In this document: positions 16,616 through 16,890 of the stretch, in pieces
How positions within the stretch are numbered: the first letter of the stretch is position 1
Layout of the letters: every line of letters begins with the position of its first letter
NCBI RefSeq assembly: GCF_003334815.1
Contig: NZ_QOWO01000003.1
Source: Escherichia coli
GTDB taxonomy: Bacteria > Pseudomonadota > Gammaproteobacteria > Enterobacterales > Enterobacteriaceae
Strand: one strand, 5' to 3'
DNA length: 64,000 nt
The notes under the pieces: generated by a model
Seen by the model: only the letters and a program-made list of their open reading frames with translations
Databases searched by the model: none
Told to the model about the DNA's origin: nothing
Program-made: the position numbers and the translations under genes

Positions 16616-16890
16616 GGCCTGATAAGACGCGCGAGCGTCGCATCAGGCAGTCGGCACTGTTGCCGGATGCGGCGTAAACGCCTTATCCGGCCTACGGAGG
16701 GTGCGGGAATTTGTAGGCCTGATAAGACGCGCAAGCGTCGCATCAGGCAGTCGGCACCGTTGCCGGATGCGGCGTAAACGCCTTATCCGGCCTACGGAGG
16801 GTGCGGGAATTTGTAGGCCTGATAAGACGCGCAAGCGTCGCATCAGGCATCTGGCACCGTTGCCGGATGCGGCGCGAGCGCCTTATCCGG
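16616..16890. repeat. tandem array of 100-bp BIME/REP units (2 full copies plus a partial third)
   Basis: Seen directly: unit ggcctgataagacgcg[c/a]agcgtcgcatcaggcagtcggcac[t/c]gttgccggatgcggcgtaaacgccttatccggcctacggagggtgcgggaatttgta begins at 16616, 16716, 16816 with exact 100-bp period and 2-3 substitutions per copy. Confidence 0.9.

Follow-up and report, generated by a model that had tools for sequence, protein, structure and literature searches.

The spacer between yjdN and yjdM in a 64,000-nt stretch of Escherichia coli DNA (contig NZ_QOWO01000003.1; "the window" hereafter denotes this whole stretch) contains REP325, an array of repetitive extragenic palindromes (REPs) of alternating Y and Z2 type, belonging to the bacterial interspersed mosaic element 2 (BIME-2) class, which is present here as a three-unit, six-hairpin allele. 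REP325 is a named and experimentally studied element, and the three-unit allele is an ordinary form of a kind already known. Its best-supported function, on the evidence of a preprint concerning the K-12 locus (bioRxiv 10.64898/2026.03.23.713779), is that of a cis-acting RNA element, and the allele in the window is most simply read as a contraction of a longer array. For the identity, the cis-acting RNA function, the behaviour inferred for three units and the contraction, taken jointly, we estimate a probability of about 0.8. A preliminary description of the window had noticed the repeats and overlooked that they are REP325, the source of the nucleoid-associated RNAs naRNA1-6, transcribed together with yjdM and acting on yjdM/yjdN expression.

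Tandem Repeats Finder identified a single array at positions 16616-16895 (period 100, 2.8 copies, 95% matches, score 502) and no other tandem array scoring 80 or more anywhere in the 64-kb window. An ungapped repeat search placed in-register copies at 16616, 16716 and 16816, i.e. with a spacing of 100 + 100, and the 26-nt junction CTACGGAGGGTGCGGGAATTTGTAGG was found in two exact copies, compared with none in 100 shuffled sequences. Both searches bear out the preliminary description of a true tandem array with an exact 100-bp period and these three starting points, and the self-alignment it had proposed as a check revealed in-register periodic repeats rather than unrelated palindromes. Of the extent given there (16616-16890) the start is correct, while the end is slightly short, as the last palindrome extends to 16891 and its tail to 16895. 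The location between yjdN and yjdM, both encoded on the minus strand, is also as described: the array lies in the 357-bp spacer from the end of yjdN at 16552 to the start of yjdM at 16910, and is extragenic.

Read along the plus strand, the units follow the order reversed Z2, 13-nt linker, forward Y and then a tail-to-tail linker of 24-25 nt, termed U (Table 1). The paired REP palindromes described for every unit are confirmed, with Z2 and Y inverted relative to each other and 0 mismatches to their consensus sequences, each of which is matched three times in the array, compared with 0 matches expected in shuffled sequences. The earlier statement that the units differ by a few substitutions is accurate for units 1 and 2 (2 substitutions per 100 nt) and holds only loosely for unit 3, which differs from unit 2 by 7 substitutions in the first 77 nt and then passes into unique flanking sequence. 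Internal palindromes have the canonical tails CTAC/GTAG, while those of the terminal palindromes are degenerate (GCGGCC toward yjdN, TTAC toward yjdM); no U linker follows the TTAC tail of unit 3.

The array of K-12 has been reported to comprise six Y-l-Z2 repeats with five identical U motifs between them, to be transcribed from the yjdM side and to give rise to naRNA1-6 (PMC4550694). At the MG1655 locus we found 5.8 copies of the identical consensus unit in a spacer of 657 bp, compared with 357 bp in the window. Base-by-base comparison revealed that the K-12 array minus its units 2-4 equals the array of the window with 0 mismatches, and that the flanks are identical. The two loci thus agree in position, flanks, 100-bp consensus unit, U linker and orientation relative to yjdM, but differ in that K-12 has six units, twelve hairpins and five U linkers, whereas the window has three, six and two, respectively. 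K-12 units 2-4, which occupy the naRNA5, naRNA4 and naRNA3 positions counted from yjdM, are absent from the window, although the naRNA4 sequence persists as unit 2. K-12 units 3 and 5 have the same palindrome pair, in line with the published identity of naRNA2 and naRNA4 (PMC4550694), and since unit 2 of the window equals K-12 unit 5, it carries the naRNA2/naRNA4 sequence.

The Rfam family naRNA4 (RF02564) matches all three units on the minus strand with 95-111 bits, compared with a gathering score of 59.5, while matches on the plus strand of the array (53-55 bits) remain under the threshold. As proof of locus identity this match is weakened by the fact that RF02564 also matches an unrelated REP pair at 14060-14140. 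Because the family recognizes REP pairs in general, the identification of REP325 rests on synteny and on the exact unit matches. The pair at 14060-14140 lies beyond the phnD stop codon toward phnE, its two REPs are inverted, and its RF02564 match is on the plus strand (69 bits). Dispersed Y-type units of the ordinary kind were also found on the minus strand at 8781-8810 (0 mismatches), 35391-35420 (3) and 63778-63807 (0).

BIME-2 elements are defined as combinations of z2 and y with a short linker, present in tandem copies whose number varies between strains (PMC3333891). By every feature that can be tested, the array is a BIME-2: it shows alternating inverted Y and Z2 units, a 13-nt linker, conserved tandem copies, an extragenic location and copy-number variation. 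The Y/Z2 alternation, the short head-to-head linker, the tandem arrangement, the extragenic location and the variation in copy number are shared with other members of the family, such as the sucC-sucB and tldD-yhdP arrays. REP325 differs from them in that its inter-unit linker is locus-specific, as the only five matches of a 48-nt junction probe in K-12 all lie in this array, and in that gyrase cleavage has been documented at other BIME-2 arrays. BIME-1 elements (Y + Z1 with an L linker, the IHF-binding RIP/RIB elements) resemble the array in being intergenic and in containing an inverted REP pair, but they are single-copy and have a long, IHF-carrying L linker, whereas the array has a 13-nt linker and a Z2 partner and is tandem. 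We rejected the assignment to BIME-1, or to an IHF-binding RIP element, on account of the Z2 partner, the 13-nt linker, the tandem repetition and the lack of an IHF consensus: the core consensus WATCAANNNNTTR has three matches in the window, which is no excess over chance, none of them in the array and the nearest at 15253. The preliminary description had suggested IHF binding. This property belongs to the BIME-1 L linker and not to BIME-2 (PMC3333891), and the suggestion fails because the BIME-1 features, namely the long L linker with its IHF site, are absent from the array.

Two further classes were compared with the array. A CRISPR array was rejected, as the sequences between the palindromes repeat as well (the U linker being identical and the 13-nt linker nearly so). 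The units resemble REPINs, the REP doublets associated with RAYT (TnpA-REP) proteins, since each consists of two inverted REPs that can fold together into a single long hairpin (-45 kcal/mol for unit 2). REPINs, however, are usually dispersed single doublets, whereas the doublets in the window are arranged head-to-tail and their length changes look homologous and in-register. The RAYT gene of E. coli, which we take to be yafM, is expected elsewhere on the chromosome. REP325 has been classed among RAYT-associated REPINs by RAREFAN in a preprint.

The computed folds of the minus-strand transcript differ among the units: unit 1 folds as two hairpins (-43.4 kcal/mol), while units 2 and 3 each fold as one long REPIN-like hairpin (-45.3 and -43.4 kcal/mol, respectively). 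The fold of the array region and spacer is far more stable than that of shuffled controls (z = -7.9). Because the minimum-energy structure of the entire spacer joins repeats that lie far apart, it reveals little about co-transcriptional hairpins, and the per-unit folds were used. Among eight unit variants we identified 12 variable positions, none of which coincides with any of the 46 stem positions; calculated for the 11 that lie in the first 80 nt, such a distribution has P ~3e-5 under random placement. The substitutions affect the loops of the hairpins, both linkers (13-nt and U) and a single tail base. This avoidance of stems fits selection or conversion that keeps the stems intact, whether as DNA or as RNA.

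Deletion of REP325 in K-12 was reported to change the yjdM/yjdN RNA ratio from ~35 to ~1, with yjdN up 8-10-fold and yjdM down ~3-fold, and to shorten the doubling time from 35 to 29 min; the intact array yields a ladder of truncated transcripts, and bicyclomycin roughly doubles read-through of the full 12-hairpin array, while constructs with two or four hairpins are unaffected (bioRxiv 10.64898/2026.03.23.713779). Another preprint places REP325 among the REPs that lie inside a 15-nt limit from the upstream gene, said to be required for translation regulation. In the experiments reported for K-12 with its six units, the array is transcribed from the yjdM promoter toward yjdN (on the minus strand in the window) and acts in cis on that RNA: its hairpins protect the upstream yjdM message from decay, and the array attenuates read-through into yjdN ~8-10-fold, partly via Rho. 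By extension from K-12, the three-unit allele would do likewise, probably with weaker Rho dependence, since only the full 12-hairpin array showed such dependence. A consensus scan of positions 16553-16909 revealed no site resembling an intrinsic terminator on either strand, and we rejected a Rho-independent terminator, as no G+C-rich hairpin is followed by a U-run. The sequence in the window agrees with an RNA-level, factor-dependent attenuator. Intercistronic REP stabilizers and REP-associated Rho-dependent terminators are comparable in that hairpins in a 3' untranslated region or spacer favour the upstream gene and have no U-tract, although REP325 is unusually long and periodic and has C-rich spacers. 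The dual behaviour as stabilizer and terminator was presented as new for REP325 (bioRxiv 10.64898/2026.03.23.713779).

On the transcript the U linker reads UACAAAUUCCCGCACCCUCCGUAG, with 10 C and 3 G residues. The plus-strand GC skew is +0.54 at both U linkers and near 0 over the palindromes, which makes the linkers the only strongly skewed segments of the array. Unpaired C-rich patches between hairpins are the typical appearance of Rho loading sites, and the rutA-boxB-rutB arrangement of lambda tR1 offers an analogy. From this composition we propose that the U linkers may act as patches resembling Rho utilization (rut) sites. The number of linkers equals the number of units minus one, so that K-12 has five and the window two, while the constructs with four and two hairpins have one and none, respectively. 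Scaling of rut-like linkers with unit number would explain why Rho dependence needs a long array, and the three-unit allele would then be expected to show an intermediate or weak Rho component. A bolder extension, which we offer as an unlikely idea, is that the array is a fast-mutating heritable rheostat on the yjdM/yjdN ratio, similar to a contingency locus, in which every unpaired C-rich U linker would provide one rut-like patch exposed between looped-out pairs of hairpins, with Rho attenuation scaling with linker number. If so, the alleles found in nature, from 1 to at least 8 units, would constitute a graded series, and contractions such as the three-unit allele could be favoured where lower yjdM or higher yjdN expression speeds growth; an advantage of contraction is conceivable because K-12 without REP325 doubles in 29 rather than 35 min.

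Several points weigh against the account given above. The functional evidence comes from one preprint and from the six-unit K-12 allele only. Since fragments with two or four hairpins showed no Rho dependence, the behaviour of a six-hairpin allele may differ from that of the full array. In the same study REP325 stabilized yjdM only when yjdN was present, REP325 was not recovered by an in vitro Rho-binding screen, and the U linker is not discussed (bioRxiv 10.64898/2026.03.23.713779). Our rut-like interpretation of this linker is drawn from the composition of 24 nt, and the count of three units is that of the assembled sequence.

The distribution of the array was studied in a collection of 5,426 complete E. 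coli genomes, using only the two unique flanks as the query for the locus, which is present in 5,418 of them. Unit counts were obtained from evenly spaced samples of 59 genomes (full-length loci) and 40 genomes (positive for the unit junction), together with totals for the whole collection. Most of the 59 sampled loci contain a single unit (36 loci), followed by six units (7), two units (6), four units (6), five units (2) and seven units (1), with none of three units; the remaining locus, L009, has an odd length, as it comprises two units with a 31-bp internal deletion. The 48-nt junction probe gave 7,712 matches in 2,173 genomes (40%), with a median of 4 and a maximum of 10 per positive genome, so that about 60% of complete genomes lack a unit junction and have at most one unit. 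In K-12 the junction is specific to the REP325 locus, because the probe matches exactly 5 times, as six units predict. Twelve of the 7,712 matches are on plasmids, and the one genome with 10 junctions could have either 11 units or a second locus. An exact 29-nt junction motif was found in none of the representative genomes of 100,044 species, and at the level of exact matches the multi-unit array appears confined to part of E. coli.

The three-unit allele is a minority form, present in roughly 0.5-5% of genomes. Six assembly records, including two of strain T28R, match the window at 100% identity over the 1,301 bp of the three-unit locus; a three-unit span is found in about 26 of the best 60 records, with ~20 beyond the exact matches being 99.1-99.9% identical, and two junctions, equal to three units, are present in 4 of the 40 sampled junction-positive genomes. 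Assemblies labelled as K-12 derivatives disagree on the length (MG1655, six units; EMG2, GM4792 and MG1655-pvir, three; MC1061 and OV2, two), which reflects either real change on a laboratory timescale or assembly error. At L003 (strain 47538; 464-622), the one locus with a single unit whose sequence was read, the spacer measures 159 bp and the left junction reads GAGAGGGAAGCC instead of GAGAGGCGGCC, without a U linker. Its Y loop matches that of the terminal unit type e and its 13-nt linker resembles that of type a; it could be an ancestral single BIME or the product of an a/e crossover.

Strain-to-strain variation of BIME-2 copy number was described earlier (PMC3333891), and the variability assumed here by the preliminary description is confirmed by alleles of 1-8 units read directly and by the presence of at least two units in 40% of the 5,426 genomes. 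To follow its course we assigned unit types by diagnostic substitutions. The units are ordered a-b-c'-d-c-e in K-12 MG1655 (six units), a-b-c-c-e in 52F4 (five), a-b-c-e in MDK6L1 (four), a-b-c-d-c-d-c-e in strain 582 (eight), a-c-e in the window (three), a-e in L004 (two), a-b*-c-d-d-c-e in L008 (seven) and a-b-c-d followed by a c/e hybrid in L007 (five). Apart from the recombinant unit of L007, which indicates that crossovers occur inside the array, these strings differ only by whole-unit, in-register gain or loss, with the end units a and e fixed. Such a pattern is what unequal homologous exchange, or slippage during replication, between 100-bp units would leave behind; the in-register changes and the hybrid unit also support the earlier suggestion that the array is a recombination hotspot. 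The best 40 matches to the 24.6 kb flanking the array in the window come exclusively from wild isolates and include no K-12 strain, and a K-12 origin of the window was rejected on this ground. Nine strains ~100% identical over these flanks have yjdM-yjdN gaps of 557 bp (five units; six strains), 457 bp (four units), 857 bp (eight units) and 357 bp (three units; CP8-3_Sichuan, carrying the allele of the window). Gain and loss must be fast, because strains with near-identical 24.6-kb flanks carry three, four, five or eight units.

The preliminary description had taken the similarity of the units to imply recent tandem amplification. That units 1 and 2 differ at just 2 of 100 positions agrees with such an origin in this lineage, and expansions are seen elsewhere (d-d in L008 and d-c-d-c in strain 582), yet we consider it improbable for the window, whose a-c-e string equals the K-12 string minus b-c'-d with 0 mismatches. 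To derive the K-12 array from a-c-e would require three duplications and four substitutions, the b and d variants are common to unrelated strains, which points to an older long array, and, of the nine strains whose flanks are near-identical, six contain five units (the one read being a-b-c-c-e). A contraction is probably the better reading of a-c-e and the more parsimonious one, because unrelated strains have the b and d variants in common and the arrays of the closest relatives (52F4, MDK6L1 and 582) comprise 4-8 units. The apparent contraction could in principle be an assembly artefact, in which a longer true array was collapsed to three units, since near-identical units with a 100-bp period are hard for short reads and the assemblies of K-12 derivatives disagree on their number. 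This we regard as very unlikely: the identical 1,301-bp locus is found in six assembly records (two being T28R) and ~20 more at 99.1-99.9%, and collapse of a b-containing array should keep b-specific sequence, which a-c-e does not contain, although collapse from a-c-c-...-e stays compatible with it.

Other functions have been proposed, or can be imagined, for such an array. In the model of Qian et al. (2015), each unit is a naRNA gene, and the naRNAs act with HU to bridge REP DNA that forms cruciforms and to condense the chromosome. The RF02564 matches to all three units and the naRNA2/naRNA4 sequence of unit 2 would suit this role of a nucleoid organizer, as would the results of RNA immunoprecipitation of HU (RIP-Chip), transmission electron microscopy, chromosome conformation capture (3C) and atomic force microscopy reported in 2015 (PMC4550694), and an HU-naRNA4 dissociation constant of ~32 nM. 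The model is disputed: a later study, which shares its senior author with the 2015 paper, found that neither deletion nor overexpression changed nucleoid size, and observed no stable complex of HU, cruciform and naRNA4 and no contacts between REPs by Hi-C (bioRxiv 10.64898/2026.03.23.713779). As a single unit is present at 36 of the 59 sampled loci, an important global role of the array is hard to reconcile with its distribution, and RF02564 matches the unrelated pair at 14060-14140 as well; altogether we find this function hard to credit for the array in the window.

A function at the level of DNA topology, with the array as a strong, transcription-independent site of gyrase binding and cleavage and more Y units providing more sites, is a lesser possibility, and could coexist with the RNA-level role. 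Gyrase binding, which the preliminary description had also suggested, is plausible at REP325 by analogy with its class, as the array fits the BIME-2 definition and gyrase cleavage sites are over-represented in BIME-2, mostly in Y-type units; only a subset of BIME-2 arrays is cleaved, however, with sucC-sucB and tldD-yhdP as the named examples, and neither yjdM, yjdN, phnA nor REP325 is mentioned in two supplementary files of the study (PMC6379681). It is somewhat doubtful, too, that the array is a selfish or neutral repeat, in which Y-Z2 REPINs were spread by RAYT (TnpA-REP), the length drifts by slippage and the effect on yjdM/yjdN is incidental. Many loci do show variable BIME-2 copy number, and BIMEs are substrates for cleavage and recombination by TnpA-REP in vitro (PMC3333891), RAREFAN places REP325 among RAYT-associated REPINs, and allele lengths range widely without obvious constraint. 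On the other hand, variable sites avoid all stem positions, which suggests selection or conversion maintaining the hairpins, all changes are of whole units and in register, as predicted by homologous exchange and not by transposition, and deletion has measurable effects on expression and growth in K-12 (bioRxiv 10.64898/2026.03.23.713779). A cis-acting RNA element on the yjdM-yjdN transcript remains the function we prefer.

The coordinates of the array, of its parts and of the adjoining genes are collected in Table 1. The stretch from the promoter-like site listed there to the start codon of yjdM (17245) contains a small G+C-rich hairpin with a T-run after it (CGGCAATCTGCCG TTTTTTGG; 17288-17300, minus strand), which may be either an attenuator in the leader or a match arising by chance. 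Strain N921, whose array has six units, carries an IS1A element immediately upstream of yjdM (L012, 1592-2289); this insertion might alter transcription into the array. Arginine-rich open reading frames of 56-66 aa at 16567-16843, on both strands, are read-throughs of the palindromes and were rejected as genes. A "hypothetical protein" feature is listed under the array-containing matches in two RefSeq records (H46 and H182); such annotations over the array probably do not represent real genes. Within phnE (minus strand, about 13254-14041), which is annotated as a frameshifted pseudogene in the closest genome, an 8-bp unit, CGCCAGCA, forms a tandem repeat of 2.9 copies at 13614-13636. This is presumably the K-12-type cryptic phnE allele that reverts by slippage, in which case the window would contain a second length-unstable repeat ~3 kb from the array. 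Elsewhere in the window we found a full-length match to the enterobacterial small RNA family STnc630 at 22558-22723 on the plus strand (182 bits) and a tRNA-Phe (GAA) gene at 53063-53138 on the minus strand.

Table 1. Coordinates in the window of the REP325 array, its constituent parts and the adjoining genes.
Feature	Position	Strand	Remarks
Whole BIME-2 tandem array (REP325 orthologue)	16616..16895		2.8 units of 100 bp, six palindromic units
Unit 1, type a, equal to K-12 unit 1; adjoins yjdN; naRNA6 position counted from yjdM	16616..16715		0 mismatches
Unit 2, type c, equal to K-12 unit 5	16716..16815		0 mismatches; naRNA2/naRNA4 sequence
Unit 3, type e, terminal, equal to K-12 unit 6; adjoins yjdM; naRNA1 position	16816..16895		0 mismatches
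Z2-type palindromic unit of unit 1	16617..16648	-	Z2 consensus, 0 mismatches
Z2-type palindromic unit of unit 2	16717..16748	-	Z2 consensus, 0 mismatches
Z2-type palindromic unit of unit 3	16817..16848	-	Z2 consensus, 0 mismatches
Y-type palindromic unit of unit 1	16662..16691	+	Y consensus, 0 mismatches
Y-type palindromic unit of unit 2	16762..16791	+	Y consensus, 0 mismatches
Y-type palindromic unit of unit 3, loop CGAG vs TAAA	16862..16891	+	Y consensus, 0 mismatches
13-nt head-to-head Z2/Y linkers	16649..16661, 16749-16761, 16849-16861		most inter-unit substitutions located here
Inter-unit U linker 1, tail-to-tail, CTAC...GTAG	16692..16716		exact repeat, 2 copies vs 0 expected
Inter-unit U linker 2	16792..16816		exact repeat of U linker 1
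naRNA-type RNA unit (Y hairpin, linker, Z2 hairpin)	16616..16692	-	RF02564, 106.7 bits
naRNA-type RNA unit, sequence equal to naRNA2/naRNA4	16716..16792	-	RF02564, 111 bits
naRNA-type RNA unit	16816..16892	-	RF02564, 95 bits
yjdM (phnA), upstream gene of the operon	16910..17245	-	TGA stop 14 nt from first REP tail, 18 nt from first stem
yjdN, downstream gene	16109..16552	-	ATG 64 nt past last Z2 stem
Candidate sigma-70-like promoter upstream of yjdM (CCGACA, 17 nt, TATAAT)	17313..17341	-	consensus match only

The six-unit array of K-12 is atypical of the species, and wherever REP325 serves as a "model REP" the length of the array in the strain at hand needs to be checked. The natural allelic series, together with the C-rich linker, provides a direct route to testing how REP arrays terminate transcription.

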